A stretch of 64,000 bases of DNA from an uncultured Gammaproteobacteria bacterium (lineage in GTDB: Bacteria; Patescibacteriota; Microgenomatia; CAYSOG01). Below, in pieces: positions 5,273 through 35,177 of this stretch. The notes beneath the pieces are model-generated. The model made no database searches. It was not told the DNA's origin and worked only from the letters and a program-made list of their open reading frames with translations. The first letter of the stretch is position 1. Each line of letters opens with the position of its first letter. The position numbers were made by a program, and so were the translations under genes. The stretch is from assembly GCA_964432675.1 (NCBI GenBank), contig CAYSOG010000005.1:910-64909 (forward strand). The letters run 5' to 3'.

Positions 5273-5322
5273 TAGTGCCTATTAAACCCACTGTTCCAAT
5301 TACTCAATAAGGTGCATATATT

Positions 5323-8227: not shown

Positions 8228-8233
8228 TATTAC

Positions 8234-11805: not shown

Positions 11806-11807
11806 TT

Positions 11808-20601: not shown

Positions 20602-20602
20602 T

Positions 20603-20758
20603 TTACTGTGCCTGGAAGCGGATGAGCTTACATGATTTCTCAAGGACTGTTGCTGGTTGGGCCAAGGTGAAGGTATTGAGCTGTAACTTCTTGTTGCCAG
20701 GGCTGGTGGGAGTAGGACGGGAACTTGGCCTTGGGGTTGGGGTGGCAGATCCCCTGCC
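20603..20758. repeat. ~156-bp segment near-identical to 23178..23333 (3' coding ends of two paralogous genes)
   Basis: Read directly from the sequence: ttactg[t/c]gcctggaagcggatgagcttacatgatttctcaagga ... aaggtattgagctgtaacttcttgttgccagggctggtgggagtaggacgggaacttggccttggggttggggtggcaga. There is a ~19-bp divergent patch in the middle. Confidence 0.85.
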
Positions 20759-21874
20759 AAATAGGTTGCCAAACCAATTAGCTATGATAGCAAAGATATT
20801 TTGGTTACCTGTCGTGCTTCCTAAAACTAAGCTGTTTGAAACCGCTTGTTTAGGAACACAGCTAAACTGAATCCAGGCCCGGTAAATCTTACCTTTTTCA
20901 AGTTGCGGAATTTGGGTTTGCCATTGTGATTGGTATCGTACAAGCGTTGGTGTATTGACTGTTGTTGTCGGGTTCACCGGCCCTGATTGGCCAATGATGG
21001 TGGCATTGTCACTGTCCCCGGCACCGAGGAAGAAGCTCATATTACTGACTTTTGCTTTCTGGGTATTTGACCCTTCAACTTTGGCAAATGCTGTAAATGT
21101 TGTTTGCTTTCCAGGTATGATATCGGTATTATCCATACCGTCACACGTACAAAGCGTTTCATCAAATGGCGTCGGCGATGGACTAGGTGTAGGTGTGGGC
21201 GTTGGGGTTGGGGTGGGCGTAGGTTGGCAGACATTTTGGCCTGCCCCATTTGGCAAACATTTTGGACATCCTACCGCTTGGACACACTGACTATCGTTTT
21301 GGCATATCATACCGCAAGCCGGCGGTGGTGTTGGTGTTGGTGTAGGTGTCGGCGTTGGTGTTGGACTTGGTGTTGGTGGTACCTGACAAATAGAGTGTGC
21401 AATATCATTTGGATTTGGCAAACATGCCGTACATTGGCCGGCTAGGGAACAGTCATTATTGGAATTGCAACTTGAACCACAAGCAGGTGGAGGCGTTGGT
21501 GTCGGGGTTGGGGTCGGTGTTACCGGGTTGGTAATTATCACTGACCCACCGTTTTGGCATGTTAGTGTTAATGTACCATCAGGATTTTGGGTTATTGTTA
21601 CAGCACCATCGGCACCTGCTGCTGCCGTACCGGCTTGCGCTGCTTGTTCAAGCGTAGCTCCCGAAAGTAATGCATTTTTGACCGCCGTGACGATATTAAT
21701 CCAGGCGGGCATGTTTGGCACCGTATTAATATTCGGTATATAGTCGCCAAATCCACCATAACTCAAGTTTCCATTTAAAACTTCCCGCTGTGCATAAGCA
21801 ACATTAGTTAATCGTGTAGTACTCACGATTCCAAGACTTAAAAGTAATATTGCTAGAACTAACTTTATTCTCAT
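20603..21874 (-). CDS. Secreted modular protein: signal peptide, Pro-Thr linkers, repeated 6-Cys modules, conserved beta-domain and conserved C-terminal tail
   Basis: Signal peptide MRIKLVLAILLLSLGIV. Modules of the form ACGSSCNSNNDCSLAGQCTACLPN are separated by PTPTPT linkers. The C-terminal 50 aa are nearly identical to 23178..24494. Confidence 0.7.
   Translation of the reverse strand: MRIKLVLAILLLSLGIVSTTRLTNVAYAQREVLNGNLSYGGFGDYIPNINTVPNMPAWINIVTAVKNALLSGATLEQAAQAGTAAAGADGAVTITQNPDGTLTLTCQNGGSVIITNPVTPTPTPTPTPPPACGSSCNSNNDCSLAGQCTACLPNPNDIAHSICQVPPTPSPTPTPTPTPTPTPPPACGMICQNDSQCVQAVGCPKCLPNGAGQNVCQPTPTPTPTPTPTPSPSPTPFDETLCTCDGMDNTDIIPGKQTTFTAFAKVEGSNTQKAKVSNMSFFLGAGDSDNATIIGQSGPVNPTTTVNTPTLVRYQSQWQTQIPQLEKGKIYRAWIQFSCVPKQAVSNSLVLGSTTGNQNIFAIIANWFGNLFGRGSATPTPRPSSRPTPTSPGNKKLQLNTFTLAQPATVLEKSCKLIRFQAQ
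21176..21376. repeat. Imperfect tandem GGTGTT/GGGGTT-type repeats encoding Pro-Thr linkers (coding microsatellite)
   Basis: ggtgtaggtgtgggcgttggggttggggtgggcgtaggt and ggtggtgttggtgttggtgtaggtgtcggcgttggtgttgg. Similar tracts occur at ~21490-21530 and ~23756-23815. Confidence 0.7.
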
Positions 21875-23130
21875 GATTTAATAAGCGATTGAAATTCTTG
21901 GTTTGCTGCCAGTCCTTCAAAAAATTTGTACTTGACATCATTCCTGGCGGTTATCTTTATACCTGGATTTTCCTCAATGGCCTGCTTAACAAATTGTAAG
22001 GCAAGCGTCTGGTTACCGAGCTTTGAAAGCGTTTTTGCAAATTCATAGCTGAGCCTTGCTTTCATGCCTGTTTTGTCATTTTGCGTTAAAAGCGTATTAT
22101 CATTGTCTATCCTTTTTAGGGCGTAGGCAAAGTAACCAGCCGCTTCCTTATCATAGCCACCGGCACGAACGACGATACCGATTAAGTAGTAATTTTCGGA
22201 AATCTTCGGATTTAGGGCAATCGCTTTTTTTAAGGCATTCACTCCTTCATAGGTGTGCCCATTGATCGCCATGAGGTATCCATACTGTGCTGCAGCTGGA
22301 GCAAAGGAGGGGTCTGCCGCTACAGCTTGCTTAGCAAACCCAATTGCCTTATCCATGGAAACAATTTTTGTCTGTTCTATTGTCGCCATGTTTGTGAAAG
22401 CTTCTGATTTAAGTTGCGCCGGTATAGTCGGCTGTTGCGTGGCCTGCTGGAAATACGTGAACGCTTCAGTAACATTACCCTTTCTTACACTTTGGCGGGC
22501 TTTTGCTAAAACGGCCTGGGGATTTTTAGGATCTAAAGCATAGGCTTTGTCGTATGCTTGGAAGGCACTTTGCTGTTGGCCTAGAAACTCTAGGACGTGG
22601 CCTTTATGGAACCAAGCTTCGGGATTTTTACCGTCAACCGCTATAGCTTTATTGTAATAACCCAGCGCTTCGGTGTATTTGCCGGCTGTTTCATTAATAT
22701 ACCCTGCTGCCAAAAGGACATTGACATCATTTGGATATTTGGCTAAAGCTTGATCGATGTATTTTTTTGCACTATTAAATGCACTTGTCTCATCACCACT
22801 TAAATTACCTTTTTCTGCTATTGTGGTAATTAATCCAGCAAACAGGCTTGGGTCTTGCTGCATACCAAGTGCTTGCGTGAACTTCTTTTCTGCACTAGTG
22901 TAATTACCACCGTTATAATCTGCAGCCGCGCTTGCCCCAAGCGTTAAAGCGGCTGATTGGTTATTCGGTTTGTTAAATTTCAAGACCAAAAGGGTAATAA
23001 CAACCAATACGGCTCCAATGATAAGACATACCAGTAGCACATTCCCCTTCGGATTATTATTGTCAGATTGTTGGTTGGAAGATAATCCTTGAAGTAGTAG
23101 ATTTTTTTCAGCCTTTATGTCATTGCGCAT
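21871..23130 (-). CDS. Membrane-anchored tetratricopeptide-repeat (TPR) protein
   Basis: N-terminal TM helix, then multiple TPR-like repeats with the recurring pattern A..Y..A...P....A. It overlaps the upstream gene's stop by 4 bp. Confidence 0.75.
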   Translation of the reverse strand: MRNDIKAEKNLLLQGLSSNQQSDNNNPKGNVLLVCLIIGAVLVVITLLVLKFNKPNNQSAALTLGASAAADYNGGNYTSAEKKFTQALGMQQDPSLFAGLITTIAEKGNLSGDETSAFNSAKKYIDQALAKYPNDVNVLLAAGYINETAGKYTEALGYYNKAIAVDGKNPEAWFHKGHVLEFLGQQQSAFQAYDKAYALDPKNPQAVLAKARQSVRKGNVTEAFTYFQQATQQPTIPAQLKSEAFTNMATIEQTKIVSMDKAIGFAKQAVAADPSFAPAAAQYGYLMAINGHTYEGVNALKKAIALNPKISENYYLIGIVVRAGGYDKEAAGYFAYALKRIDNDNTLLTQNDKTGMKARLSYEFAKTLSKLGNQTLALQFVKQAIEENPGIKITARNDVKYKFFEGLAANQEFQSLIKS

Positions 23131-23177
23131 ATTTTAATACTATCACTCTACCTTTTAAGACTGCAACAATGGCATAT

Positions 23178-23333
23178 TTACTGCGCCTGGAAGCGGATGA
23201 GCTTACATGATTTCTCAAGGATGAGGGAGGGTTGGCCCAAGGTGAAGGTATTGAGCTGTAACTTCTTGTTGCCAGGGCTGGTGGGAGTAGGACGGGAACT
23301 TGGCCTTGGGGTTGGGGTGGCAGACCCCCTGCC
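23178..23333. repeat. Partner copy of the near-identical 3' coding segment (see 20603..20758)
   Basis: Direct comparison of the two segments. Confidence 0.85.
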
Positions 23334-24494
23334 GATCAGACGGCTAAACCAGCTGCCAATGATATCCCAGATACTCGAGTTTTGGCTAGACGATCCTAAG
23401 ACTAAGCTGTTGACCGTACTGGCTGGACCCTTTTGGGCACAGTCAATTTGAACCCAGGCCCGGTAGATCTTACCCTTTTCCAGTTGGGGAATTTGCTGCT
23501 GCCAAGTTGATTGGTAACGGACAAGGTTGGGATTGTTGGCAATGACTTGGGACTGAACTGGTCCTGATTGGCCAATGATGGTGGCATTGTCACTGTCCCC
23601 GGCACCGAGGAAGAAACGGATGTCGTTCACTTGGGCTTTGGAAGTATCAGCCCCTTCTACCTTGGCAAAGGCCGTAAAGGTTGTTTGTTGGCCTGGGGTA
23701 ATATCAGTCGTATCCATACCATCACACTTACACATATCAGGGCTAAAGCCTGGTGTTGGGGAAGGAGTTGGTGGGGATGTTGGTGGTGGGGTTGGCGGTG
23801 GGGTTGGAGGAACCTGGCAAGTATTAATGCCACCACCGTTTGGCAGACATGCTGTGCACTGGCCAGCTAATGAACAGTCGTTGTTATTGTTACATTGACT
23901 ATTGCAAGCTGGAGGCGGCGACGGTGATGGGGTCGCTACGGGACAACTGCAGCTAGTGCTATCTTGGCAAGATGGATTTCGGCATTGGCCCTGGAAACAA
24001 AATCCGGAAGCACAATCCGAATTCCCTTGGCATGTGGCATTACAGGCTAAATTTGGTTGCGGCGTTGGTGTTGGTGGAACTTGGCACGTATTTTGGCCGC
24101 CGCCGTTTGGTAAGCAGGCGGAACATTGGCCAGCTAATGAACAGTCGTTGTTATTGTTACATTGGCTGTTACAGGCCGGCGTGGTTGTCGGTGCAGGTGT
24201 GGGGTTCTGGCAGGAATCAACCTTACAGTTAATCCACCCATTGCTACATTGGAAATGATAAATGCCGACGTTACCGGTGGCGGGCTCGCACTGGTCATCT
24301 ACCGGTACACAAATTTGGTCTGGACGACACTGGTTACCACAAACCTCAGGAACAGCATTACTCACAGCAATAGCTTGCGGTGCTGCGGCAAACCACACGA
24401 TCATCGATACTAACACTGAGAAAAAGGCAATCATAATGCGGCTTGTCTTACTAACGCCGCGCCAAACTCGTTCACCTTTTTTTATAAAGGACAT
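23178..24494 (-). CDS. Secreted modular Cys-rich / Pro-Thr-linker protein, paralog of 20603..21874
   Basis: It has the same 6-Cys modules (ACNSQCNNNNDCSLAGQCSACLPNGGGQNTCQVPPTP), the same beta-domain (CDGMD..FTAFAKVEG..FFLGAGDSDNATIIGQSGPV) and the identical C-terminal tail. The N-terminal region differs. An alternative start at the signal-peptide Met is ~24434. Confidence 0.7.
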   Translation of the reverse strand: MSFIKKGERVWRGVSKTSRIMIAFFSVLVSMIVWFAAAPQAIAVSNAVPEVCGNQCRPDQICVPVDDQCEPATGNVGIYHFQCSNGWINCKVDSCQNPTPAPTTTPACNSQCNNNNDCSLAGQCSACLPNGGGQNTCQVPPTPTPQPNLACNATCQGNSDCASGFCFQGQCRNPSCQDSTSCSCPVATPSPSPPPACNSQCNNNNDCSLAGQCTACLPNGGGINTCQVPPTPPPTPPPTSPPTPSPTPGFSPDMCKCDGMDTTDITPGQQTTFTAFAKVEGADTSKAQVNDIRFFLGAGDSDNATIIGQSGPVQSQVIANNPNLVRYQSTWQQQIPQLEKGKIYRAWVQIDCAQKGPASTVNSLVLGSSSQNSSIWDIIGSWFSRLIGRGSATPTPRPSSRPTPTSPGNKKLQLNTFTLGQPSLILEKSCKLIRFQAQ

Positions 24495-24495
24495 A

Positions 24496-25731
24496 TTACC
24501 CTGTCCCTTTCAATAAATATAGTAAATAAAGCGTATAAGCGCTATCGGACGTTAAGATATAATGTTCTGTTCCAGCCCCCATCGCAATCGGCCTAGCCAT
24601 AAATATCGTCCCGCCTTCGCCATAAATTTTCTTTTGCTGCTTGCCATCATAAAACGTGTTCATGAAAAATGCCATGAGTTTTTTCCCTGTATCATTATAA
24701 GACTTGTCATTTGTTACCTGCGCCATCTCGAAGTAACTCTCAATACATGGCTGGATTTCTACCGGGTTTATGAATCCGTCGTAATCCTTCGTTAAGTCGT
24801 ATGTTGCCATCGATTGTTTCACCGCCTGTAAAATTTGGGGGTTATTTTGCCGGCCAATGTCGATGCCGGCCAGCCAATACCAGCAACCAAACTGCGGAAA
24901 ATGAGGGCCGGTTACATAGTAAAGCGGTACTTGTTGCTTAAAGGTGTTTTGAGCCAAATCGAAGCGCTTGATCGCTTCCTGCATGTATTGTGTGTTGTGG
25001 GTGATCTCAGACACGAGCGCCAACTCCCGTGCCTCAATAGTAAGCAGCATATATTGGGTATTGGGCGGTGTTTTAGTAAGCAAGTCGGCTTCCTGATTTA
25101 AAAACGTCAAAATAGCCGGGTCTTTGGTCTCGCTATACAACCGAACCGGTTGGTCTAATATCCAAAGACACTGATTTCGGTTTGCAGCACACCAAGTATT
25201 AAGCGATGCGAAATCGGCTTTCGCGAGCTGCAAGTATTTGGGATTATTTTGCATTTTATAACCTGCTAAATAACCTAACATTGTCCAACTATTCGTAGTC
25301 TGAAATACTTGCTGGCCGTTGAATGGACACACGCTTTGACCATTTTTAGGAATGCACTGATTATTGTACCGTGAAATGTAATTATAAAACCCATCTTTGC
25401 GCTGCATACTCTGCAAGTAAAGCAACGAGGTAAGCGTGACCGCTGTAACTGCTGAAGGATCATTTTTGGCAATTTGGCCGCCAAAACCGCCTTCCCTCGC
25501 TGCTGCTGCTCCACCGGCCGTTCCCTGCTTAGAAGCAGCATTTTTACCTAAACGGAGCAATAGCAACAGCAATGCCGTCACAATGACTGCAACAATACCT
25601 ATCGGCAACCAATATTTTCGAAAAAATGAAACTTTCTGTTGTATACGCGGTTGACTAGGAGATTCTAAAGGCGGTTGCGGTGTTTGATCCTCTGGTGTGA
25701 TTGGTGGTTGAGATGTAGATTTGTTATCCAT
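24496..25731 (-). CDS. Type II membrane protein with Pro-rich cytoplasmic N-terminus and large extracytoplasmic domain (function unknown)
   Basis: Pro/Gln-rich N-terminus, a single TM helix (IGIVAVIVTALLLLLL) and a ~330-aa extracellular domain with several Cys and Trp. No firm motif. Confidence 0.45.
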   Translation of the reverse strand: MDNKSTSQPPITPEDQTPQPPLESPSQPRIQQKVSFFRKYWLPIGIVAVIVTALLLLLLRLGKNAASKQGTAGGAAAAREGGFGGQIAKNDPSAVTAVTLTSLLYLQSMQRKDGFYNYISRYNNQCIPKNGQSVCPFNGQQVFQTTNSWTMLGYLAGYKMQNNPKYLQLAKADFASLNTWCAANRNQCLWILDQPVRLYSETKDPAILTFLNQEADLLTKTPPNTQYMLLTIEARELALVSEITHNTQYMQEAIKRFDLAQNTFKQQVPLYYVTGPHFPQFGCWYWLAGIDIGRQNNPQILQAVKQSMATYDLTKDYDGFINPVEIQPCIESYFEMAQVTNDKSYNDTGKKLMAFFMNTFYDGKQQKKIYGEGGTIFMARPIAMGAGTEHYILTSDSAYTLYLLYLLKGTG

Positions 25732-25751
25732 TGCAGCGTCATAACCGTTTG

Positions 25752-26345
25752 TTATTTATTGGTATCGGCAAGCTTGAGATAAAAGTAGAGTGCGGTTCCA
25801 GCAAGCATAAAGCCTAAGCCGCCGAAGGCCAGAAGTAAGGTTGTTTCAGCACTACCCGTTTTTGGCAATTTAGCCGGAGGTGTGGGTGTTGGGGCAATCG
25901 TCCCACCGCCTTGGACTTGGCAAAGCAAACTAAAGGTTCCGGTGGCACCAGTATTGCCGCATGAATTAACCGCTGCGACATCACATTTGTAGGTTTTCCC
26001 CTGCGTTACAGGAAAAGTTACCTTGGTTGTAGCAGTCGGTTCAGATTCACTTTTCACAACTTTCCCGCTTTCAACTTCAGTTACGGTTAAATTGTATGAT
26101 GAAGCGTTTGCCACAGCCCCCCAACTACAACTAGCGTTCACAAACGAACATTGGGCGCCATTACAGCTTGGGAACTCAACCAAGACACTCGAAACTTGGT
26201 CTGGAACTGGACAAGCCTGGGCTTGTGCTTGCACCTGCGGAACAAGAGCACTGGGCTTCGGTAATGCCGAAGGCGCCAAGACCAAAAGGCCAAAACCCAG
26301 AATGGTAACGAATAGTGGCAGCAATCGTATTTTCATGCTATTCAT
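25752..26345 (-). CDS. Cell-wall-anchored surface protein with LPXTG sorting signal (sortase substrate)
   Basis: Signal peptide, then a Cys-containing Ig/FN3-like region, then a C-terminal LPKTG (at 25854..25868) followed by the hydrophobic stretch LLLAFGGLGFMLAGTALYFYL and the basic tail KLADTNK. Confidence 0.65.
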   Translation of the reverse strand: MNSMKIRLLPLFVTILGFGLLVLAPSALPKPSALVPQVQAQAQACPVPDQVSSVLVEFPSCNGAQCSFVNASCSWGAVANASSYNLTVTEVESGKVVKSESEPTATTKVTFPVTQGKTYKCDVAAVNSCGNTGATGTFSLLCQVQGGGTIAPTPTPPAKLPKTGSAETTLLLAFGGLGFMLAGTALYFYLKLADTNK

Positions 26346-26485
26346 GTCTGAAAGGTTGGTATAACGTCAAAAAAATCTACCTAGTATTTAGCGTAGTACT
26401 ATTAATAGAGATAGTCAAGACAACAACGTAAAAACGTGCTCTTTATTTTATAAATGGAATATAGAACAACGGGATATCATCAGAA

Positions 26486-26539
26486 GGGAAAAAATAAGGC
26501 AGGGGCTGAAACGGGTGTAAACCGCTTCGGCCACCTGCC
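26486..26539 (-). terminator. Rho-independent terminator downstream of 26551..27591
   Basis: On the minus strand: GGCAGGTGGCcgaagcggtttacacccgtttcaGCCCCTGCC, a 9-bp stem with one bulge, followed by TTATTTTTTCC. It lies 12 nt past the stop codon. Confidence 0.7.
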
Positions 26540-26550
26540 GATTAAATATC

Positions 26551-27591
26551 TTAACTACTGCGAACGTGGAGCATCTGCTGAAACATCCTCGACAATGACC
26601 ACCCCCGCGGTTCAGGCATGGCTGCCATACCGATACTGGGTACGGGTTCATTAGCTGGATACGATTGCCGAAAGACATCAAAGACATTAACCGCTGTTGA
26701 TAGCAAGTCCTCTTTCAAGCAAAGCTCATCGCAGAGCAACATACTGCGAAAACCATGGTCATACAACCAGGCAAGCTCAAGGAAATCTGAACAGGAAGGC
26801 ACTGGAGCATGCACAACTGATAGCAGTATCCTTGAACCGACACATGCTTCGGGATCTTTACTTATAATAAGCTCGTGGGCCGCTAAAATTTCATGCGGTT
26901 TATCGATTTCAACGTATAGGTCACCACGGGCTACTACTAAGACAAGGTTGGATTGCTTGACGAATTCGTTTTGGACGTATGCCAGACCTTTAGGGTTTTC
27001 AATTTTTAGCATTACCTCTTGATCGCGACCAACAACGTCAAGAAACTCTTCAACGTCAGCCTGCCGCTCAACAAATGAAAGGTAATACCTTGTAAAACCG
27101 GCCTTTTTCACCTTTGCAATTTTTTCATATTCTACATCGGTAAAAAGTGGGCCATTGACAACCAGGCTTGGGTCACGAATACAGATCGATTCCCCAGCCT
27201 TGATATTGTAGTACGGTGGCTCAGTCAAGTGTAACTCATAGCCATCGTCCGACAACTCGGTTAAAAGCGCATTATCTTCGCCAGCTTTCAAAAGGACTGG
27301 TGTTGGTGTTACCACACTAATTGGATGGTTTAGGCGAAGCTTTGGGTATTCTTTACCACCGCGCTCTACAACCTCGACCTCAGCAATGCGTAGTTGCCTG
27401 CCCTTAACGTCGAAGTAAAGCGGCACGGTTGGCGCCGTATTAGCGATAATGGCTAGCTCTGCATCGAGGTCATCGAGAGCCATCATGGCAGAGTTTATCC
27501 TAATACCGGCAAGCCTTGGATCTTTTGCAAACCGTTCAAAATGCGGAAAACTTGGCCACAATGTGACATGGAGTTTTGCAGTATTCGCCAC
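26551..27591 (-). CDS. Pyruvate-kinase-like barrel domain protein (lacks the PK C-terminal domain)
   Basis: DVKGRQLRI (compare PK DTKGPEIR) and VVARGDLYVEIDKPHE (compare the PK signature MVARGDLGVEIP). At 346 aa it is shorter than bona fide PK. Confidence 0.45.
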   Translation of the reverse strand: MANTAKLHVTLWPSFPHFERFAKDPRLAGIRINSAMMALDDLDAELAIIANTAPTVPLYFDVKGRQLRIAEVEVVERGGKEYPKLRLNHPISVVTPTPVLLKAGEDNALLTELSDDGYELHLTEPPYYNIKAGESICIRDPSLVVNGPLFTDVEYEKIAKVKKAGFTRYYLSFVERQADVEEFLDVVGRDQEVMLKIENPKGLAYVQNEFVKQSNLVLVVARGDLYVEIDKPHEILAAHELIISKDPEACVGSRILLSVVHAPVPSCSDFLELAWLYDHGFRSMLLCDELCLKEDLLSTAVNVFDVFRQSYPANEPVPSIGMAAMPEPRGWSLSRMFQQMLHVRSS

Positions 27592-27662
27592 GGTACCTCC
27601 TTACCTTTAGCGAGTAAGAACTAGGGGACGGCACCTGCCACCCCCTAGTTGAATTTTGACGA

Positions 27663-28652
27663 CTAAATCAGTGGTTTTGACCGTTCACCGTCGCCGGCAC
27701 CCAGCAAGCGGGAATTACCAAGCGGTTTGTGCTTGTCTTCATCATCTTCGTCACCCGGCAACATTTTGTGAATGCCAGCGAGTGCCGTATATACAGTTGC
27801 CACCTGGTCGGGTCTCTGCCTTCCTTCAATTTCGATCTTAAAGTGGTGGCGCATGGATGTTGCTTCAGCTAAAATGCCGAATATAACGTCCACAACCCGT
27901 TCCGGATCAGGTAAAACGGCGATGTGATCATAACCAACCAAGTCGGCCCAATAATCAAACATTCTATTCTCAAGGGCTTTCATTTGGTCACTATCTGATC
28001 TACTAGTGTCAAACGGTTTTTTAATGACATATACCGCACATTTACGGGCAAGCTCTGTGAATACTTCTTTTGTTGATAGCCTACCTGGCAGGTCAACATG
28101 ACCATACTTCTTGGCATGATCACCATTGACGAACGGGTACGGCATTTCATCACCAATGAAGATAACAATCGGCCGCAGCGCCTTTGGCATATGAACATTG
28201 CGGGCAATATACAAGGCCGCAAGCTCGTATGTTTCTTGGCGTTGACCACCACCATTGCTTTCTATTTTGAGCTGTTCCAACTGAGTCGCAAGGTCGGTAC
28301 CCTTGGTAAATGGCCGAACCTGTAGCGGATAACTATCAGAGTAGGCATCCCCAATAGCAAAGAAGCTGATTTCCATTTCCTCACCGAGATACGATTTTCC
28401 TTCGATCTCAAGGTATCCCAGTTTGGAAAAAATGACAGCTGTCCAGTCACCCATTGAACCGGTTTCGTCAGTTACGACGATGAGTGGTTGTGGACTATCA
28501 GTCGAGATAGATTCCGGTACTAGGTCGGCAGCTTTTACACCGGCGGCTCTCGCATCGCTGTAACTGCGGCCAACATGCGTGTCGTACGCTCTGCGTGCTG
28601 CAGCAAAATCATGGCCCTTCCAGGCACCAGGATTAAAATCAGCGTTCCCCAT
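27663..28652 (-). CDS. von Willebrand factor A (vWA) domain protein
   Basis: LIVVTDETGSMGDW is a MIDAS-like D-x-[ST]-G-S motif. It is immediately downstream of, and co-directional with, a Ser/Thr kinase. Confidence 0.55.
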   Translation of the reverse strand: MGNADFNPGAWKGHDFAAARRAYDTHVGRSYSDARAAGVKAADLVPESISTDSPQPLIVVTDETGSMGDWTAVIFSKLGYLEIEGKSYLGEEMEISFFAIGDAYSDSYPLQVRPFTKGTDLATQLEQLKIESNGGGQRQETYELAALYIARNVHMPKALRPIVIFIGDEMPYPFVNGDHAKKYGHVDLPGRLSTKEVFTELARKCAVYVIKKPFDTSRSDSDQMKALENRMFDYWADLVGYDHIAVLPDPERVVDVIFGILAEATSMRHHFKIEIEGRQRPDQVATVYTALAGIHKMLPGDEDDEDKHKPLGNSRLLGAGDGERSKPLI

Positions 28653-28671
28653 GGTTTGTTACCTTCTCTTT

Positions 28672-29682
28672 CTAAAGCCCTGGAATTGGTTTCATGTCAG
28701 AATGCACGCGACCAAACGCTTGTTGTCTGACTTGTTGGATATCTTCCCAGAGGTCTACCTTTTCCCAAGTTGGTCTGTCACGAACATCATGTTGGATAAG
28801 TTGCGCGATAAAGCTTCTGACCGGGTCTGGTACCTCCTTAGGCAAAGACCTTGCTTGGACCATCTCTGGCTTACCACTTAAGGCAAATAGCATGGTCATA
28901 CCCAAACTGTAAAAGTCAGATTCTGGCAAAAGCGGTTTGCCTGCAATTTCCTCAGGAGGTGCGTAAATTTCGGTGTACCCTTTGGACTTCGAACCTGCCG
29001 AAGGCTTAATAATCGAAAGCCCGTAGTCTACAACAACCACCATGTGGCTTTCATGCTGGATGATAATGTTTTGCGGTTTAATATCTCCGTGGACAACACC
29101 ATGGAAATGAAGAAATTTCAGTGCATTAAGGACGCGCTGAGCAATCCAGCAAACATCTTCTGCATCAAGCCGCCCAACTTTCTCAATAATTTCGGCAAGG
29201 GTAAAGCCTGGAATATAGCTCATGACCAATGCCAGGCTACCGTCAGGCAAACGCAGTATATTGCGCATGGCTGGAACGGAGTAATGCCGCAAGTCCCACA
29301 CTGCCTTGGCTTCTTCAATTAAGATCTGCTCATGGAGTGGGGAAATTTCGGAACAATGCTTGATGCATACCGGCTCGTTGAGCAAGATTTGCTCACCGCG
29401 GTAGGTAATGCCGAAGCCACCCTCTGCGATTTTATCCAAAATGCGGTATTCACCAATAATCTTGCCATCAAGCTGCCGCGAATCCATATCATAGGCTGCA
29501 CGTTTCTTTGGGTCGGATAATTTATCGTATGCTTCATTAAGGAGAACCGCGATCCGATCAGTATCATCAACTATCCCATTTGGGAAATGGGCTTTCATTA
29601 AAGCCCGGTATGCCCCGGTAATTACTTCCTGTTGAGCCCTTGGGTGAACTTGCAAAACTTCATAAGGGTTTTGGTCAGGCAT
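28672..29682 (-). CDS. Hanks-type Ser/Thr protein kinase (non-RD: HGD catalytic loop)
   Basis: GEGGFG Gly-loop, VCIKHC (VAIK Lys), HGDIKPQNIII, DYGLS (DFG variant) and YAPPE (APE). Confidence 0.8.
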   Translation of the reverse strand: MPDQNPYEVLQVHPRAQQEVITGAYRALMKAHFPNGIVDDTDRIAVLLNEAYDKLSDPKKRAAYDMDSRQLDGKIIGEYRILDKIAEGGFGITYRGEQILLNEPVCIKHCSEISPLHEQILIEEAKAVWDLRHYSVPAMRNILRLPDGSLALVMSYIPGFTLAEIIEKVGRLDAEDVCWIAQRVLNALKFLHFHGVVHGDIKPQNIIIQHESHMVVVVDYGLSIIKPSAGSKSKGYTEIYAPPEEIAGKPLLPESDFYSLGMTMLFALSGKPEMVQARSLPKEVPDPVRSFIAQLIQHDVRDRPTWEKVDLWEDIQQVRQQAFGRVHSDMKPIPGL

Positions 29683-29878
29683 TATTCCTTCTGCCTCCTC
29701 TCGCTTGCCATTTAGAGGTTAGTATGTAATCCCGAAGTTGTTAAAGTACGAGTATTACGAATGTTCTCGCAATGCTGACAATCATTTTGTCGCTGTTATT
29801 GTAACACGAATTTGTGCCTAAGTAAACTATAGGTTTACTGGGTTGTTGTCTGGTTCCAAATTATAAGTGAATGGAAAT

Positions 29879-29905
29879 GCGCCTGAAGGATGTACCCTCA
29901 GGCGC
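29879..29905 (-). terminator. Hairpin immediately downstream of the pit stop codon (probable terminator, weak U-tract)
   Basis: GCGCCTGA-n11-TCAGGCGC is a perfect 8-bp stem 11 nt beyond the stop at 29917. On the minus strand it is followed by atttccatt. Confidence 0.4.
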
Positions 29906-29916
29906 TAGAAGATTTG

Positions 29917-30927
29917 TCAGCGATTTGTAACAAGTTTATACCCAAACATTAGCAAGTAACCCAAGAAAAAGCAGGCTGGTAATGTCGCAACCCACGCCAT
30001 GACGATATTGCCTGCAGTTTTCCAGTAAACCTTGCGTATGCCATGGGCTGCGCCAACACCGATCACAGCAGAACTAATAGCATGGGTGGTTGAGATCGGC
30101 ATGCTAAAAACGCGCGTCGCAACTTCAATAACCGTGCCGGCTGCAGTTTCTGCGGCAAATCCTTGCATCGGCGACAGTTCTGTTAGCTTGTACGCCATAG
30201 TATGAATAATTCGCCAACCGCCGCAAAAAGTGCCTAAAGCAATTGCCGTCGCTGCTGTTATGATTACCCAAATAGGTATGTAGAAATGGCTTCCTAATAC
30301 ACCCGAACTATATAATGAAAGCGCAATAATCCCCATTGTCTTTTGTCCGTCATTACCACCGTGAGAAAATGCCATCCAGACAGAAGAAACTAGTTGCGCC
30401 TTACCAAAAACAGTATTAGCAAGCTTGTGGTTACTATCAAAAAATACTCGGAGTAATCGTAAAAGAGCCAACCCTCCTAAAAGACCCAAGATAGGCGAAT
30501 AGACTAATCCAGCGACAACTTTAACTAGTCCCGCCGAGATCACGACATGCATGCCAGCGGTTGCAATGGCCGCGCCTAAAACACCAAATAGTAATGCATG
30601 AGAACTGCTGGTCGGCAGTCCGAGCCGCCACGTAAAAAGGTCCCAAATAATCGCCGCAAGCAATGCCGCAATAATAGTTTCCTGGCTTACGGCTTTTGAG
30701 TCAACCAACCCTTTACCAATAGTCGCAGCAACAGCAGTACTCGACACTGCACCTACAAAATTCATGACCGATGCCATACTTACGGCTTTTTTCGGCGTTA
30801 AGACCCTTGTCGCAACCACAGTTGCAATAGCATTTGCCGTATCGTGGAAACCATTAATAAACTCAAAAACATGGCCTGCAACATAGATGATACAAAGTAG
30901 CACTAAGACCGAATTCACATAGTCCAT
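29917..30927 (-). CDS. pit: Inorganic phosphate transporter, PiT family
   Basis: The N-terminus GHVFEFINGFHDTANAIATVV carries the GxNDxAN-type PHO4 signature, repeated in the second half as SHGGNDGQKTMGI. Polytopic. Confidence 0.8.
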   Translation of the reverse strand: MDYVNSVLVLLCIIYVAGHVFEFINGFHDTANAIATVVATRVLTPKKAVSMASVMNFVGAVSSTAVAATIGKGLVDSKAVSQETIIAALLAAIIWDLFTWRLGLPTSSSHALLFGVLGAAIATAGMHVVISAGLVKVVAGLVYSPILGLLGGLALLRLLRVFFDSNHKLANTVFGKAQLVSSVWMAFSHGGNDGQKTMGIIALSLYSSGVLGSHFYIPIWVIITAATAIALGTFCGGWRIIHTMAYKLTELSPMQGFAAETAAGTVIEVATRVFSMPISTTHAISSAVIGVGAAHGIRKVYWKTAGNIVMAWVATLPACFFLGYLLMFGYKLVTNR

Positions 30928-31113: not shown

Positions 31114-32109
31114 ATGGAGATAAGAAAACTACAAAAAACCGGTGGTTCAAGCCTGACAATTACCCTGCCAAAAAAATGGCTTGATAGGAGTAAGTTGCAA
31201 GATAAAGACGCAGTGGCAGTGCATGGGCTCGATGCAGGTTATCTATTACTAAAACCTTCCATCACAACGCAGGTCCAAAAGGCAATATTCGCAATCGACG
31301 GTTTAGATGCAAATACGCTTTTGCGAGAACTCATTGCCTATTACTTATCCGGCACGGACGAAATTGTTATAAGAAGCCAAAATATTAATTCGGAACAACG
31401 CAATTGGGTAAGAAATTTAACAAATGCCTTTATTGGCTTTGAAATAGTTGATGAATCTGCCAAAGAAATAACGCTAAAAAATATCTTCGATGATAAAAAA
31501 TTCACCATACCACAACGAATAGACAAGATGTTTACCATTACTGAAACGATGTTTGAAGATTCGTTGAAAGCACTTTCAGAAAATAACACTACACTTGCAC
31601 AAGATATTGTTGGAAGAGACTTTGAAATTGATAAGTTGCATTGGGCAATCGTGCGGCAATTCCACTCTTTAATATCATTCAAGCTTTTTGAGGAAGAAAT
31701 AGGCATTACCTTTATTGACCTGCATTATTTTGAAATGGTCTCAACGCAGCTTGAAAGAATTGCAGATCACGCCGTAAAAATAGCCAATGCCATTATCGAA
31801 ACGCCGCAAGAAAATTTGCAAAGCATTGCAAAATCAAAGAATTTTAAAATGATTACTGAAAAAATTATTGCGATGCTGCATGATACGGCATTTATGGTCA
31901 AATCACTCGACACAAATATGGCGCATAAAATTTTAGACCAGAGTAAGGAAGTTGAACTGGCAATTACGGTAGAAAAACGCCATTATGCAAAAAGTAATCT
32001 TGTCGAAATTATTACCGAAGACAGCTTTGATCGAATTAGGGGCTATATAATGAACATTGCCGAAATGACTATTGACCAATCGGTTCTGCAACGTGAACTC
32101 CAACAATAA
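31114..32109 (+). CDS. PhoU-domain phosphate uptake regulator with N-terminal AbrB/SpoVT-type DNA-binding domain (Pit accessory/regulator type)
   Basis: The N-terminus QKTGGSSLTITLPKKWLD is a SpoVT/AbrB swapped-hairpin motif. The remainder is helical and PhoU-like. It is divergent from pit with a shared 186-bp promoter region. Confidence 0.6.
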   Translation: MEIRKLQKTGGSSLTITLPKKWLDRSKLQDKDAVAVHGLDAGYLLLKPSITTQVQKAIFAIDGLDANTLLRELIAYYLSGTDEIVIRSQNINSEQRNWVRNLTNAFIGFEIVDESAKEITLKNIFDDKKFTIPQRIDKMFTITETMFEDSLKALSENNTTLAQDIVGRDFEIDKLHWAIVRQFHSLISFKLFEEEIGITFIDLHYFEMVSTQLERIADHAVKIANAIIETPQENLQSIAKSKNFKMITEKIIAMLHDTAFMVKSLDTNMAHKILDQSKEVELAITVEKRHYAKSNLVEIITEDSFDRIRGYIMNIAEMTIDQSVLQRELQQ

Positions 32110-32657: not shown

Positions 32658-34436
32658 CTATTTATACCCTTGTGCTTGTATATTAAATAGTTCGGCATAC
32701 AAGCCTTTCTTACTCATCAACTTTTCGTGGTTACCTTCTTCAATAATTTTCCCTTCGTCCAAAACCAGTATGCGATCAGCGTTTCGTACCGTCGAAAACC
32801 GATGGGAAATAATAATGACTGTTTTATCTTTTTGTAACTTTTGGACATTTTCGAATATCTCGTATTCTGCTTTTGCATCGATTGCACTGGTTGGTTCATC
32901 AAGGATCAATATTGGAGCGTCTCGAAAAAATGCCCTGGCAAGGGCCAACTTTTGCCACTGGCCACCAGATAAGTCCACACCGTTATCAAACTTCTTGCCG
33001 ACAACTTGGTCTATACCATCGGGTAACTCTTTGATATAACTATCGGCGCCAGACTTCATAATGGCCTCTTTTAGAAGTGCCTCATTATTGTTTTCTTCGA
33101 TATTGCCAAAATAAACGTTTTCCTTAAACGAGAGGTTGTATTTAATAAAGTCCTGGAAAAGTGCGCCGATTATCTTATGCCAGGCTTCTAAGTCTACTTG
33201 CTTGATATTTATACCGTTAAGTAAAATTTCACCTTCAGTTGCATCATAAAACCGCAAAAGCAGTTTAATGAGGGTTGATTTTCCAGCCCCATTTTCTCCA
33301 ACCAAGGCAATCTTTTCACCGGATGTTATCTTTAAATTGATATTCTTAAAAATAAATCTTTCTGAATGAGGATATTGAAAAGATACATTCACAAACTCAA
33401 CTGTCGGGGGAAGAGGCCCTGGAATTTCTGTCGGATGTTCCGGATTTTTAATGAACCTTGGATAATCCAAAAAGTCAAAATACTGGTCTAAATATTTCAC
33501 TCGCATGTAGGCCGCTGAGTAGTGGTCCAAGGTGAGGTTTGCTCCTTGGGCTAGGTTCATTGTTTGTTGAAAGATCAAGCTAAATTGGCCAATCGAAAGC
33601 CTACCAGCAATAACAGAAGTTAAGTTATAAAATTGGGTAATAAAAAAGACAATCAATTGTATTAAGTCAGCCGCTATAACTAATTTTATTGTCCGATCTA
33701 ATACTTTGACTAATTTTTTCATATATCTTGTTTGTATTAATATCATCTTTGCGATAAGCAGTTCGCCATTTCTAAATATGGCAATCTCTTTAGAAGTTGA
33801 ATCTTGGACAAATAAGTCGATAAGATATTTTTGAATCCGAACGGTTTTGGGCCGCTCTTCAAGCAAAAACGGGTAAATGCTTTTTCGGTAATTTTGCAGC
33901 GCTAAAAATAACGGCAATGACGATAGTAAAATTGCCGGAACAAAAAGTGGAAATATCTTGCCAACAACGATAATGCCGGTAATAAACATAACTAATGCAT
34001 TGAGCATGCCAATAAACCGGTCAATAAACTCATTCATGTTATACCGGATCATTTCAATCTGCGCCAAAAGGTCTTGGAATTTTGGGTTCTCGAATGTTGC
34101 TGGATCAAGGGTAGCGAGTTTGTTAATACTTATCCTTTCGATATAATCTTGCATCCGATAGCCAAAAACTAAATCACGGGTTTGAAGCAGGTTAATCAAA
34201 ATTCTGTTTAACAGTGCGGCCAAGATGTAAATAATAATAGGAATAGTTAAATCAGTGACTTGTAAGCCTCGACGCGCAGCTAGCAAATCTAACAACTTTG
34301 AGAGTAATATTATTTGGATTAATGGAAAAAATGTTTGGCTATAAATCTGAGAAAAGATAGATATGCCTGCATAAATGCCATTGGCTTGCCAAAGCATTTT
34401 CAAAACCCGCCAGCCATATCGCAATGTCTTAAACAT
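32658..34436 (-). CDS. ABC transporter, fused permease/ATPase (type I exporter, MsbA-like)
   Basis: Six-TM N-terminal domain. The NBD has the Walker A motif GENGAGKST, the signature LSGGQWQKLALARAF and the Walker B motif ILILDEPTSAID. Confidence 0.85.
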   Translation of the reverse strand: MFKTLRYGWRVLKMLWQANGIYAGISIFSQIYSQTFFPLIQIILLSKLLDLLAARRGLQVTDLTIPIIIYILAALLNRILINLLQTRDLVFGYRMQDYIERISINKLATLDPATFENPKFQDLLAQIEMIRYNMNEFIDRFIGMLNALVMFITGIIVVGKIFPLFVPAILLSSLPLFLALQNYRKSIYPFLLEERPKTVRIQKYLIDLFVQDSTSKEIAIFRNGELLIAKMILIQTRYMKKLVKVLDRTIKLVIAADLIQLIVFFITQFYNLTSVIAGRLSIGQFSLIFQQTMNLAQGANLTLDHYSAAYMRVKYLDQYFDFLDYPRFIKNPEHPTEIPGPLPPTVEFVNVSFQYPHSERFIFKNINLKITSGEKIALVGENGAGKSTLIKLLLRFYDATEGEILLNGINIKQVDLEAWHKIIGALFQDFIKYNLSFKENVYFGNIEENNNEALLKEAIMKSGADSYIKELPDGIDQVVGKKFDNGVDLSGGQWQKLALARAFFRDAPILILDEPTSAIDAKAEYEIFENVQKLQKDKTVIIISHRFSTVRNADRILVLDEGKIIEEGNHEKLMSKKGLYAELFNIQAQGYK

Positions 34437-34565: not shown

Positions 34566-35177
34566 TCACTGTTTACTAATTACTACAAAACCTCTTTCTA
34601 TTCCATCAATTTTTTTGTCCATAGCTCCAGTTAACTGATCAACCGTTGTAGTCCAGTAACTAGGACTTTTAGCGTCAGGATCACAGAGTAAAATAGTACC
34701 TTTCTTTATTTCATCAATTAATACGAAATGTCCAAATGCTCTTTTTTCATCAATATATTTCATATGGAAATTAGCAATAAGGTCATTACCATTATCAATG
34801 TTAGTTTTTATGAAGTCTTTTACATTATTAATATTACTAATCAGAAAAACCTTTGACGCTAAAGCCGGTCTTAAATTACTAAAAAAGTTCCTAACTATAA
34901 TTTCACCAAATTCTACAAGATTAATGCCTGCTTCTTTGTTATCCGTCGTTGTCTTGAGTTTTAAGGTGAAGTATTTAGCCTCATGCGGAAATACCCTTGC
35001 ATTTACTTTTTCTGCTATCTCCTCTTGATCCATCATAATATCATTTCTTAATAGGATCATTTGAATACACGTTGGCCCACATAAAGAAGGTTTTTCCACT
35101 AAATGATAGTAGCGTCGTTTAGGCATAACGCCATTATAGCCTAATGAGCCTAGCTCAGAAATAGAATATAATGCCAA
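34566..35177 (-). CDS. Stand-alone papain-like cysteine peptidase, C39-like family (putative)
   Basis: PSLCGPTCIQMILL resembles the C39 catalytic-Cys region (xCGPxxLxMxL). A downstream GHFVLIDEI resembles the C39 His motif. It lies immediately upstream of the ABC exporter on the same strand. Confidence 0.45.
   Translation of the reverse strand: MALYSISELGSLGYNGVMPKRRYYHLVEKPSLCGPTCIQMILLRNDIMMDQEEIAEKVNARVFPHEAKYFTLKLKTTTDNKEAGINLVEFGEIIVRNFFSNLRPALASKVFLISNINNVKDFIKTNIDNGNDLIANFHMKYIDEKRAFGHFVLIDEIKKGTILLCDPDAKSPSYWTTTVDQLTGAMDKKIDGIERGFVVISKQ

Follow-up and report, generated by a model that had tools for sequence, protein, structure and literature searches.

A J-domain protein kinase, a divergent vWA-fold protein and a pyruvate-kinase-like enzyme encoded as a three-gene cassette in ultra-small bacteria, ultra-small archaea and huge phages

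Background

The TerY-P triad consists of the vWA protein TerY, a PP2C phosphatase and a Ser/Thr kinase-ZnR/OB (Anantharaman et al. 2012, Gao et al. 2020, summarised in PMC11090510), the kinase bearing its zinc ribbon or OB fold at the C-terminus (PMC11090510). The MoxR-vWA pairs -- NorQ-NorD, CbbQ-CbbO and the Mg-chelatase ChlI-ChlD -- also have a soluble MIDAS vWA protein, encoded beside its presumed client enzyme. Among eukaryotes, GAK/auxilin-2 is a single chain with both a Ser/Thr kinase and a J-domain, by which phosphorylation is coupled to the recruitment of Hsp70, and it has PTEN-like and clathrin-binding regions as well; in the vWA/copine-RING E3 ligases, such as plant RGLG, the vWA domain is the target-binding module of a protein-modifying enzyme.

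The locus discussed here lies in a 64-kb stretch of DNA, all of which was analysed and which is called the window below. In a preliminary description it was taken for a TerY-P-like dyad lacking its phosphatase. Like TerY-P, it brings together three genes, among them those of a Hanks-type Ser/Thr kinase and of a cytoplasmic vWA protein with a MIDAS, putative in this case, and in both a phospho-switch could plausibly act on or around the vWA protein. It is, however, a complete triad rather than a reduced one, the third gene encoding a metabolic enzyme (pyruvate-kinase-like here, PurA-like in phages). The vWA protein goes unrecognized by vWA and TerY profiles, the kinase has an N-terminal J-domain in place of the C-terminal zinc ribbon or OB fold, and no ter genes or restriction systems are found near the cassette. 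As already reported, no phosphatase gene is adjacent; none was detected in the 64-kb window either, nor was PP2C found in 177 related loci (phmmer with a single Pfam-validated PP2C query, run without a positive control). Membership of TerY-P was rejected because of the missing profile match, the missing PP2C, the N-terminal J-domain and the lack of a C-terminal zinc ribbon or OB fold. No published description of the cassette was found in the literature searched, whose coverage was incomplete, so its absence from the literature is unproven.

Organization of the locus

Both reading frames of the preliminary description, a kinase followed by a vWA-like protein on the minus strand, are real. Gene 1 (28672-29682, minus strand) encodes a 336 aa protein with a J-domain and a Hanks-type Ser/Thr protein kinase domain (Pfam DnaJ and Pkinase). 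It is followed after 19 nt by gene 2 (27663-28652, minus strand), encoding a divergent vWA-fold protein of 329 aa with a disordered, basic C-terminal tail (identified through phrog_2971, AlphaFold2 and Foldseek), and after a further gap of 71 nt by gene 3 (26551-27591, minus strand), encoding a truncated pyruvate-kinase paralogue of 346 aa, here called PKL, with an A domain (TIM barrel) and a reduced B domain (lid), as seen with the Pfam PK barrel model and AlphaFold2. The genes on either side of the kinase-vWA pair had been correctly named as pit (Pit/PHO4, 29917-30927) and a PK-like barrel protein; the latter does adjoin the pair, but it is the third member of the unit and not an outsider. 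By consensus scan only, a promoter-like site, TTTACT, 17 nt, TG-TACAAT, lies upstream of gene 1 (29798-29826, minus strand), and a terminator-like hairpin of 11 bp, 8 of them GC, lies just past pit, between it and the cassette (29879-29905, minus strand). The kinase, vWA-like and PKL genes form a self-contained three-gene operon, and this anatomy is solid.

A link of the cassette to the adjoining pit-phoU genes was considered and rejected, since those neighbours are not kept in any relative. GC content is uninformative as to a foreign origin: the 20-30 kb segment, at 0.45-0.47, is richer than its flanks, yet similar values occur elsewhere in the window.

The J-domain kinase

The gene 1 product matches Pfam Pkinase from aa 79 to 308 (E 1.2e-32; 113.8 bits against a cut-off of 31.7), corresponding to 28759-29448 on the minus strand. 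This catalytic domain includes an EGGFG loop, Lys108 in VCIK, Glu124, HGD at 198-200, KPQN, DYG at 219-221 and a PPE motif; K108, E124, H198-G-D200, N205, D219-Y-G and P243-E244 are all present, and each is kept in 48-56 of 56 relatives. As judged from the profile match and these residues, it is a Hanks-type (eukaryote-like) Ser/Thr protein kinase. The HGD and DYG motifs to which attention had been drawn previously occur within VHGDIKPQN and VDYGLS, and both are family-wide: across the 56 relatives H198 is found in 55, G199 in 54 and D200 in 50, while position 220 is F in 32 and Y in 22.

Among solved structures, the PASTA-type kinases S. aureus Stk1/PknB and StkP come closest to the kinase domain in sequence (E about 7e-21). 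Unlike them, gene 1 encodes neither a transmembrane segment nor PASTA repeats, and its family is set apart by the N-terminal J-domain, a non-RD catalytic loop (HGD) and a Cys that precedes the catalytic Lys. The window kinase also resembles the PADLOC kinase models mad6 and PD-T4-6, a generic kinase-domain likeness.

The kinase domain ends at aa 308 of 336, and the sole other domain is the N-terminal DnaJ (aa 5-65; 29488-29670, minus strand), which passes its Pfam threshold (E 3.4e-11; 43.5 bits against a cut-off of 27.8) and which the preliminary description had missed. The HPD tripeptide, needed for stimulation of the Hsp70 ATPase, is degenerate in the window kinase, where the sequence reads H-F-P-N-G, with FPN at the tripeptide; it is retained in 31 of the 48 alignable relatives and lost in 17, the window kinase being among these. 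GAK/auxilin-2 likewise has a J-domain fused to a protein kinase, though in the reverse order, and the comparison implies homology for two generic domains at most.

The vWA-fold protein

That the gene 2 product is a vWA protein is borne out by its fold and by a MIDAS-like motif, though not by profile searches: no match was obtained in Pfam (E<=10), NCBIfam (E<=1) or PADLOC (E<=10), and a profile of the protein matched nothing among all PDB sequences, so that fold comparison alone detected the vWA relationship. Failure in an HMM search had been named beforehand as refuting the assignment, and such a failure is literally what was found, yet the fold evidence rescues it. One distant relative gives a sub-threshold match to VWA_CoxE (E 0.008). 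The protein does match phrog_2971 (E 1e-22), an uncurated family, and the vWA-like family as a whole comprises 1517 representatives at 50% identity. It lacks a signal peptide or hydrophobic N-terminus, in agreement with the earlier view that it is soluble.

Foldseek comparison of the AlphaFold2 model (pLDDT 85) gave as best solved-structure match the VWA domain of NorD in the NorQ-NorD complex (E 5e-7), along with integrin beta I-like domains and many viral VWFA proteins, with probability 1.0 and TM about 0.4-0.5; as modelled, the gene 2 product has a Rossmann-like alpha/beta vWA fold. The MIDAS-like motif, D62-E-T64-G-S66 (28455-28469, minus strand), was placed from alignment A1 and the model at the end of strand beta1 (residues 56-62). 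In alignment A1, D62, T64, G65, S66, M67 and G68 are invariant; among 33 homologues D62-x-T64-G-S66 and G167-D168-E169 are invariant and a glycine loop, G134-G135, is conserved. A MIDAS comprises DxSxS following beta1 together with a Thr and an Asp contributed by later loops. Both DxTGS (62-66) and GDE (167-169) lie at the expected strand ends in the model, with the G-G-G-Q loop of residues 134-137 at the MIDAS Thr position. In a mycobacteriophage homologue an intein is inserted one residue ahead of the IGDE strand, which marks this motif as functionally critical.

The C-terminal tail is predicted to be disordered (pLDDT < 50 for residues 298-319 in the AlphaFold2 model). Within it, conservation across 88 tails picks out the motif G-[KRH]-S-[VIT], here G-N-S-R, and a terminal K-[SP]-L-[LI], here K-P-L-I (27666-27719, minus strand), which are candidate phospho-acceptor and docking sites.

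Distant, probably eukaryotic members of the family are fused to U-box, NUDIX or zinc-finger domains, and the U-box and NUDIX fusions fit an adaptor coupled to a modifying or nucleotide-handling enzyme. The U-box, where present, is C-terminal and in a eukaryote-like genome, an arrangement recalling the vWA/copine-RING E3 ligases; in contrast to these, members from prokaryotes and phages have the one domain only, and the modifying enzyme, a kinase, is encoded separately. No vWA-PKL or kinase-vWA fusions are among the top matches. The structural match to NorD likewise recalls the MoxR-vWA pairs, from which the cassette differs in having a J-domain kinase as the accessory protein and, as the presumptive client, a PK-like or PurA-like enzyme; an AAA+ MoxR ATPase gene is found neither in the cassette nor in the window or the relatives examined.

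The pyruvate-kinase-like protein

PKL matches the Pfam PK barrel (E 2.5e-8). In its AlphaFold2 model (pLDDT 90) the last barrel helix ends at about aa 310 and is followed by a low-confidence tail; every one of the best 50 Foldseek matches of this model in the PDB is a pyruvate kinase (E about 1e-17; TM about 0.46 when normalised to the target), and hhalign against E. coli PykF gives 95.5% probability. Like the canonical enzymes (PykF/PykA, PKM), PKL has the A-domain TIM barrel, the inserted B domain and the catalytic Lys, Glu and Asp of pyruvate kinase. The active-site motifs L-K196-I-E198-N and A-R-G-D224-L (26920-27006, minus strand) align to KIEN and ARGDLG of yeast pyruvate kinase, and K196, E198 and D224 to PykF K220, E222 and D246; PykF E314 is matched as well, while T278 is replaced by Ser. 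R31, N33, D61, K63, R68, K196 and E198 are identical in 62 of 62 relatives, and D224 and S253 in 61, with a gap in the remaining one.

The N-terminal R-x-N and D-x-K-G-x-x-x-R motifs resemble those of pyruvate kinase, and it is from this resemblance and the fold match that R31, N33, D61, K63 and R68 are assigned to the K+/PEP site. The sequence alignment of the N-terminal third with PykF is not significant (score 43, against a shuffle maximum of 44), and the modelled N-terminal half corresponds to pyruvate kinase by fold only. PKL also differs from the canonical enzymes in size, with about 310 core residues as opposed to about 470, the B domain being reduced and the C-terminal allosteric/tetramerisation domain missing (no PK_C match in Pfam, and none in the model); in lying far below curated pyruvate-kinase cut-offs (37.2 bits, as against 306.4, on the NCBIfam equivalog TIGR01064); and in that its gene is always in the cassette. 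No equivalent of the B-domain ATP-binding Lys, PykF K156, is conserved, which leaves the nucleotide substrate of PKL uncertain.

Distribution in cellular genomes

The kinase-vWA synteny that the preliminary description had proposed to look for is kept in nearly every relative. Among GTDB species-level loci, from Patescibacteria and DPANN archaea, the vWA-like gene is immediately followed by PKL in 58 of 58; a kinase of the family type is within 5 kb in 51 of the 58, and is upstream of the vWA-like gene wherever it could be located. (The 58 loci, from 185,579 species genomes, are a lower bound, detection having been pattern-based.) The cassette genes in the relatives are 2-28 nt apart or overlap by 29 nt, while the genes flanking them differ from genome to genome and are unrelated. 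The adjacency of the kinase and vWA-like genes, kept in dozens of genomes, is not due to chance, and it supports the view that their products genuinely function as a pair.

That the cassette occurs patchily among CPR and DPANN species speaks for an accessory role and against a core metabolic one. The cellular copies have among their neighbours genes for ribosomal proteins, RNR, RuvA and tRNA synthetases. The DPANN sequences make up one clade nested inside the CPR diversity, which suggests long vertical retention following a single transfer.

Phage cassettes

The cassette is common to ultra-small bacteria, ultra-small archaea and huge phages: the full triad of kinase, vWA-like protein and PKL is present in 22 of 24 IMG/VR contigs and in a 485-kb phage (record LR745208.1). 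Jumbo phages have a parallel cassette of kinase, vWA-like protein and a PurA-like adenylosuccinate synthetase. In 75 of 80 contigs the PurA-like gene comes next after the phage-type vWA-like gene, which is preceded by a kinase in 43-53 of the 80, depending on the detection method; the vWA-like/PurA-like pairing was confirmed in three cultured phage groups. The vWA-like protein and a downstream enzyme also persist without the kinase, as in loci L035, L055, L061 and L066 and in Rhizobium and Vibrio phages. A family-specific J-domain HMM matches 3 of the 53 kinases of PurA-type cassettes, a count that may miss diverged J-like N-termini; a canonical HPD is present in some of these cassettes (L104, L106). 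The neighbours of the phage cassettes include NADAR, an NMN adenylyltransferase/NUDIX gene, a phosphoribosyltransferase-like gene and ribonucleotide reductase genes. The PK-like and PurA-like partners have no fold in common, and adenylate supply, as the denominator joining them, is our interpretation.

Possible function

Gene anatomy, folds, conserved catalytic residues and synteny are all matters of observation, and the kinase, pyruvate-kinase and vWA components look active, to judge by their catalytic and motif residues. The account that we favour, tentatively, has the vWA-like protein serving a nucleotide-handling enzyme, PKL, as its MIDAS adaptor or regulatory subunit, with the kinase as the switch. 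PKL would be a catalytically competent phosphotransferase of the pyruvate-kinase type, passing phosphate from PEP to a nucleoside diphosphate, without the allosteric/oligomerisation C domain of ordinary pyruvate kinases. The vWA-like protein would be its dedicated partner, forming a complex with it through the metal-ion-dependent adhesion site, and in the jumbo phages the same kind of vWA protein would be paired with the PurA-like adenylosuccinate synthetase instead. Phosphorylation by the kinase would switch the complex, the target being either the adaptor (the serine of the tail motif G-[KR]-S-[VI] is a candidate) or the enzyme itself. In most relatives the J-domain may also recruit DnaK/Hsp70, a step probably lost in the window because its HPD is degenerate. 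The physiological output would be kinase-gated control of the adenine-nucleotide/NTP supply in organisms and phages living on scavenged metabolites.

The J-domain could instead be central. The vWA-like protein might be a MIDAS adaptor of the NorD/CbbO/ChlD type which, together with DnaK/Hsp70 recruited by gene 1, assembles, metallates or reactivates PKL or its PurA-like counterpart, Hsp70 replacing the MoxR AAA+ ATPase and the kinase domain serving only for tuning. Such an activase is in keeping with NorD, in its NorQ-NorD complex, being the best structural match, with a J-domain above the Pfam cut-off and with the HPD kept in 31 of 48 relatives and canonical in L104 and L106. Hsp70 peptide preferences accommodate Leu-rich, Lys-flanked motifs, and the vWA-like tail ends in one. 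Yet the HPD is gone from 17 of the 48, the window included, the J-domain HMM reaches few of the PurA-type kinases (possibly an undercount), and none of the contexts examined has a DnaK gene linked to the cassette; moreover, the kinase catalytic residues are far better kept than HPD, which points to kinase activity, not Hsp70 recruitment, as the conserved function. The activase is on the whole unlikely. We give a similarly low probability to a role of the cassette in conflict, as a mobile module for defence or counter-defence in which the kinase and vWA-like protein sense infection or host defence and PKL or the PurA-like enzyme restores or depletes the nucleotide pool, in the manner of phage NAD+ reconstitution or nucleotide-depleting abortive infection. 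Carriage by huge and jumbo phages, the nucleotide- and NAD-related genes around the phage copies, the patchy cellular distribution and the kinase's generic likeness to mad6 and PD-T4-6 would suit a conflict system; the silence of all PADLOC models for the vWA-like protein and PKL, even at E<=10, the housekeeping genes rather than defence islands around the cellular copies, the long vertical retention suggested by the nested DPANN clade and the lack of any toxin-like effector would not.

A metal-sensing phospho-switch like TerY-P, with its PP2C lost or encoded elsewhere, is very unlikely. A Ser/Thr kinase beside a putative MIDAS vWA protein makes up two-thirds of the TerY-P parts, and the general idea of a phospho-switch on a vWA protein survives in the favoured account of a kinase-switched adaptor; against kinship stand the differences in profile matches, phosphatase, kinase domains and surrounding genes given above, and a conserved third gene that encodes a PK-like or PurA-like enzyme. 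As for coincidence -- PKL being simply the organism's glycolytic pyruvate kinase, with the kinase and vWA-like genes unrelated to it -- some sources do label PKL homologues "pyruvate kinase", and the catalytic residues are conserved. That explanation is, however, scarcely tenable given the 58/58 adjacency, across two domains of life and phages with flanks differing each time, the tight spacing or overlap of the genes, the missing C domain and a score of 37 versus 306 bits on the NCBIfam pyruvate-kinase model.

Significance

The cassette supplies a context -- a kinase upstream, a nucleotide enzyme downstream -- for phrog_2971, a family of unassigned function present in about 200 mycobacteriophage genomes; the cluster C mycobacteriophages, which grow on M. 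smegmatis and are engineerable, offer an experimental handle. Its occurrence in bacteria, archaea and huge phages may reflect inter-domain transfer.

A broader and more speculative reading, which we regard as possible though doubtful, is that the kinase and vWA adaptor are an unrecognised, widespread module that docks onto alternative nucleotide enzymes, a C-domain-less pyruvate kinase in CPR bacteria, DPANN archaea and huge phages and a PurA-like enzyme in the jumbo phages. The energy metabolism of CPR and DPANN, which account for a large part of microbial diversity, is poorly understood. In a recent survey of complete Nanobdellota genomes the "pyruvate kinase" calls are patchy and include lineages unable to make PEP via glycolysis; if these calls are PKL, metabolic reconstructions mistake a regulated accessory module for a glycolytic step. 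The module, if real, could also account for "orphan" pyruvate-kinase calls in genomes without upstream glycolysis. Control of the ATP/adenylate supply by a protein kinase and a MIDAS protein would then replace classical allostery, and would be a new regulatory principle in the central energy metabolism of ultra-small symbionts and giant viruses.

Gene order and distribution of the cassette

Three consecutive minus-strand genes encode, in order, a Ser/Thr kinase with a J-domain (28672-29682), a vWA-like protein (27663-28652) 19 nt downstream, and a pyruvate-kinase (PK)-like protein, PKL (26551-27591), starting another 71 nt on; this anatomy of the triad can be regarded as nearly certain. The preliminary description had singled out the first two as a functional pair. 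That pairing is real, with a kinase gene within 5 kb in 51 of 58 loci from GTDB species genomes (CPR and DPANN), but the PK-like gene, taken for a mere neighbor, is a third member that was missed: it lies downstream in all 58. Among these loci are Patescibacteria lineages as well as Woese-, Pace-, Nano- and Aenigmatarchaeota, plus a small number of differently labeled bins; four of the kinases are in divergent orientation, and in two loci with no detected kinase the vWA-like gene lies at the contig end. Relatives at about 30% identity still retain all three genes. The same order is kept, amid wholly different flanking genes each time, in four homologous loci, from Patescibacteria, Woesearchaeota and Falkowbacteria genomes and a groundwater scaffold, where the genes are separated by 2-28 nt or overlap by 29 nt. 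Among the 24 IMG/VR loci with the PK-type cassette, a kinase is nearby in 24, a PK-like gene downstream in 22 and a PurA-like gene downstream in none; several of these contigs measure 300-485 kb, and the full triad is present in LR745208.1, deposited in GenBank as a 485-kb uncultured phage. In a simple neighbor-joining tree (no bootstrap), the DPANN sequences form one clade inside the bacterial diversity, and the window's sequence clusters with that of a Collierbacteria genome. CPR bacteria, DPANN archaea and huge phages share this conserved cassette, and jumbo phages have a sister version of it. No description of it was found in the literature, and it is apparently an undescribed three-gene unit composed of known domains. 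A terminator-like hairpin after pit and a promoter-like site ahead of the kinase gene are consensus matches only.

In three IMG/VR loci (L094, L095 and L097) the match spans only the vWA-like N-terminus (aa 3-84 to 3-138), and two of them also have no detectable PK-like gene; the vWA-like gene may have been interrupted in these contigs or have decayed. On a 165-kb groundwater scaffold (L007/L008), a full-length EF-G-like gene directly follows the triad; the surroundings, with numerous small ORFs, R2K ATP-grasp domain genes and an HNH gene, look like a phage-type context.

The encoded proteins

The 336-aa kinase has a DnaJ domain at aa 5-65 (Pfam, E 3.4e-11; 43.5 bits against a cut-off of 27.8), overlooked in the preliminary description, and a Pkinase domain at aa 79-308 (Pfam, E 1.2e-32); among solved structures it is closest to Stk1/PknB and StkP, which are Hanks-type kinases of bacteria. 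Among 56 non-identical relatives, Lys108 is kept in 51, Glu124 in 56, His198 in 55, Gly199 in 54, Asp200 in 50, Asn205 in 55 and Asp219 in 54, and Phe occupies position 220 in 32, Tyr in 22. The HGD and DYG motifs had been read correctly and are family-wide signatures. The HPD tripeptide of the J-domain, present in 31 of 48 alignable relatives, is degenerate in the window (H-F-P-N-G).

The 329-aa vWA-like protein, confirmed to have no signal peptide, matched nothing in Pfam or PADLOC (E<=10), in NCBIfam, or among all PDB sequences when these were searched with a profile; its sole profile match is phrog_2971 (E 1e-22), a phage family without assigned function. Full-length homologs share 50-60% identity, none with a Pfam annotation, and the family is large and well conserved: at E<=1e-3, 1.84 billion proteins yielded 1517 representatives of it at 50% identity. 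In Foldseek searches, the AlphaFold2 model (33 homologs, pLDDT 85) has as its top PDB match the VWA domain of NorD (9qh6_G, E 5e-7), ahead of integrin beta I-like domains (all at probability 1.0, with TM about 0.4-0.45), and its matches among viral models are almost all VWFA-domain proteins. The invariant residues are D62-x-T64-G-S66, following strand 56-62 of the model, the G-G-G-Q loop (134-137) preceding helix 142-152, and G167-D168-E169, following strand 162-167, all of which sit where the metal site (MIDAS) would be expected. The earlier vWA assignment is thus supported by predicted fold and MIDAS-like motifs but not by a sequence profile from Pfam, NCBIfam or PADLOC. The final ~30 residues are basic and disordered; two short motifs are conserved among them, G-[KRH]-S-[VIT] and, at the very end, K-[SP]-L-[LI]. 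Some distant members are fused to a C-terminal U-box (an E3 ligase domain), to NUDIX or to a RanBP-type zinc finger (P0365, P0378, P0366, P0370, P0380; L072:8001-9233); the NUDIX fusion is a marine protist transcript, and the U-box fusion lies on a eukaryote-like contig, adjoining genes for a mitochondrial carrier, a La-domain protein and ribosomal protein L35Ae.

PKL, the pyruvate-kinase paralog of the triad, matches the Pfam PK barrel (E 2.5e-8), yeast PK by profile (E 1.3e-10) and E. coli PykF (hhalign, 95.5% probability). The top 50 PDB matches of its AlphaFold2 model (pLDDT 90) are all pyruvate kinases (E about 1e-17, ~350 aligned columns), with TM 0.60-0.67 on the query and only about 0.46 on the target; the model has an A-domain TIM barrel with a reduced B lid and stops after the last barrel helix, without the C-terminal regulatory domain. 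K196 and E198 (KIEN) align to PykF K220 and E222, D224 (ARGDL) to D246, S253 to T278 and E289 to E314. R31, N33, D61, K63, Q66, R68, K196 and E198 are identical in 62/62 relatives, and D224 and S253 in 61/62, with a gap in the remaining one; the N-terminal third aligns to PK by fold only, and the Lys through which the B domain of PK contacts ATP is not conserved. With 37 bits against the NCBIfam pyruvate-kinase equivalog cut-off of 306, and with no C domain, PKL is a pyruvate-kinase homolog and not an equivalog.

A sister cassette in jumbo phages

Members of the vWA-like family are carried by about 200 cluster C mycobacteriophages, as well as by Rhizobium and Vibrio phages. Phage I3 has the order kinase, vWA-like, a 112-aa ORF and a PurA-like adenylosuccinate synthetase; the PurA-like gene comes immediately after the vWA-like gene in Rhizobium phage RHph_Y65 and Vibrio phage TDDLMA. 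For this sister cassette (L098-L177 from IMG/VR, L009, L069 and L070), the best 80 of 221 IMG/VR relatives have a PurA-like gene just downstream in 75 cases, a PK-like gene in none, and a kinase upstream in 43 by tblastn or 53 by HMM; a small number of the phage kinases bear a canonical J-domain with HPD. Across both cassette types, the constant element is a vWA-like gene followed by one for a nucleotide-handling enzyme, usually with a kinase ahead, and only the identity of the enzyme varies. In cultured phages, genes for NADAR, NMN adenylyltransferase/NUDIX, phosphoribosyltransferase-like and ribonucleotide reductase proteins lie near the sister cassette.

Mycobacterium phage Yassified gp258 (L178:2785-4566), annotated 'HNH endonuclease', is a vWA-like homolog with a 253-aa intein-like insertion that begins with Cys1 and ends ...SSN, followed by Cys+1. 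The insertion sits one residue ahead of the IGDE strand (IFIGDE, MIDAS Asp), and the exteins are ~99% identical to the uninterrupted I3 protein gp271 (L009:4992-6014); many cluster C phages show a similarly split match. Inteins favor functionally critical sites.

Other features of the window

Directly upstream of the cassette, pit (PHO4; 29917-30927, -) is divergent from the gene of a regulator that joins an N-terminal MazE/AbrB-like domain to a PhoU domain (31114-32109, +), an adjacency to the cassette kept in no relative. An ABC exporter gene, judged from its translation, adjoins one for a stand-alone C39-like cysteine peptidase with weak Phytochelatin/C39_2 matches (32658-34436 and 34566-35177, both -), a pairing reminiscent of bacteriocin processing and export. 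A TPR-repeat gene (21871-23130) is flanked by the genes of two secreted paralogs (20603-21874 and 23178-24494, both -) that are rich in Cys, have Pro/Thr-rich linkers, are almost identical in their C-terminal halves and lack a Pfam match. Paralogous secreted subtilase-like (Peptidase_S8) proteins (2084-3319 and 17985-19205, both -) lie on either side of a ~12-kb cluster whose translations (4166-15670) resemble glycosyltransferase and polysaccharide-assembly genes. The GC content of 20001-30000 is 0.45-0.47 against 0.36-0.41 in the flanks; comparable values occur elsewhere in the window, so the difference is no evidence of recent transfer.

Relation to known systems and possible function

The kinase and vWA pair had been likened to TerY-P, in which a TerY-like vWA protein goes with a phosphatase of the PP2C type and with a kinase that carries a zinc ribbon or OB fold at its C-terminus (PMC11090510). 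All three features were sought in the cassette and none was found, so that this family assignment was wrong; a kinase-vWA phospho-switch is plausible for both, but the cassette does not belong to TerY-P, and a TerY-P-like reading of it is highly improbable. The lack of an adjacent phosphatase gene was noted correctly: a Pfam-validated PP2C query found none in the window or in 177 loci, a search of limited sensitivity because it used a single sequence. The cassette may also resemble MoxR-vWA adaptor systems, though it does not belong to them. Chance adjacency of genes that stay together amid completely different neighbors has a next to negligible probability. An Hsp70-driven activase analogous to NorQD/CbbQO is unlikely, weakened as it is by the frequent loss of HPD; just as unlikely is a defense or counter-defense module acting on the nucleotide pool, a reading favored by carriage in phages but opposed by the housekeeping contexts and the lack of PADLOC matches.

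The reading we favor, if tentatively, is that the vWA-like protein would be a MIDAS adaptor or regulatory subunit serving the downstream enzyme. What the analysis shows is the anatomy, the folds, the conservation of catalytic residues and the synteny; the complex, the contact through the MIDAS, the target of phosphorylation, the substrate of PKL and the physiological role are inferred. The kinase would switch the complex of the two by phosphorylation, with the conserved serine of the vWA-like tail as a candidate site; where HPD is present, the J-domain would add Hsp70 recruitment, a step probably lost in the window. In the PK-type cassette the kinase would gate phosphotransfer from PEP to NDPs, and in the PurA-type cassette of phages the conversion of IMP to AMP; the net effect in both would be control over adenylate or NTP supply.
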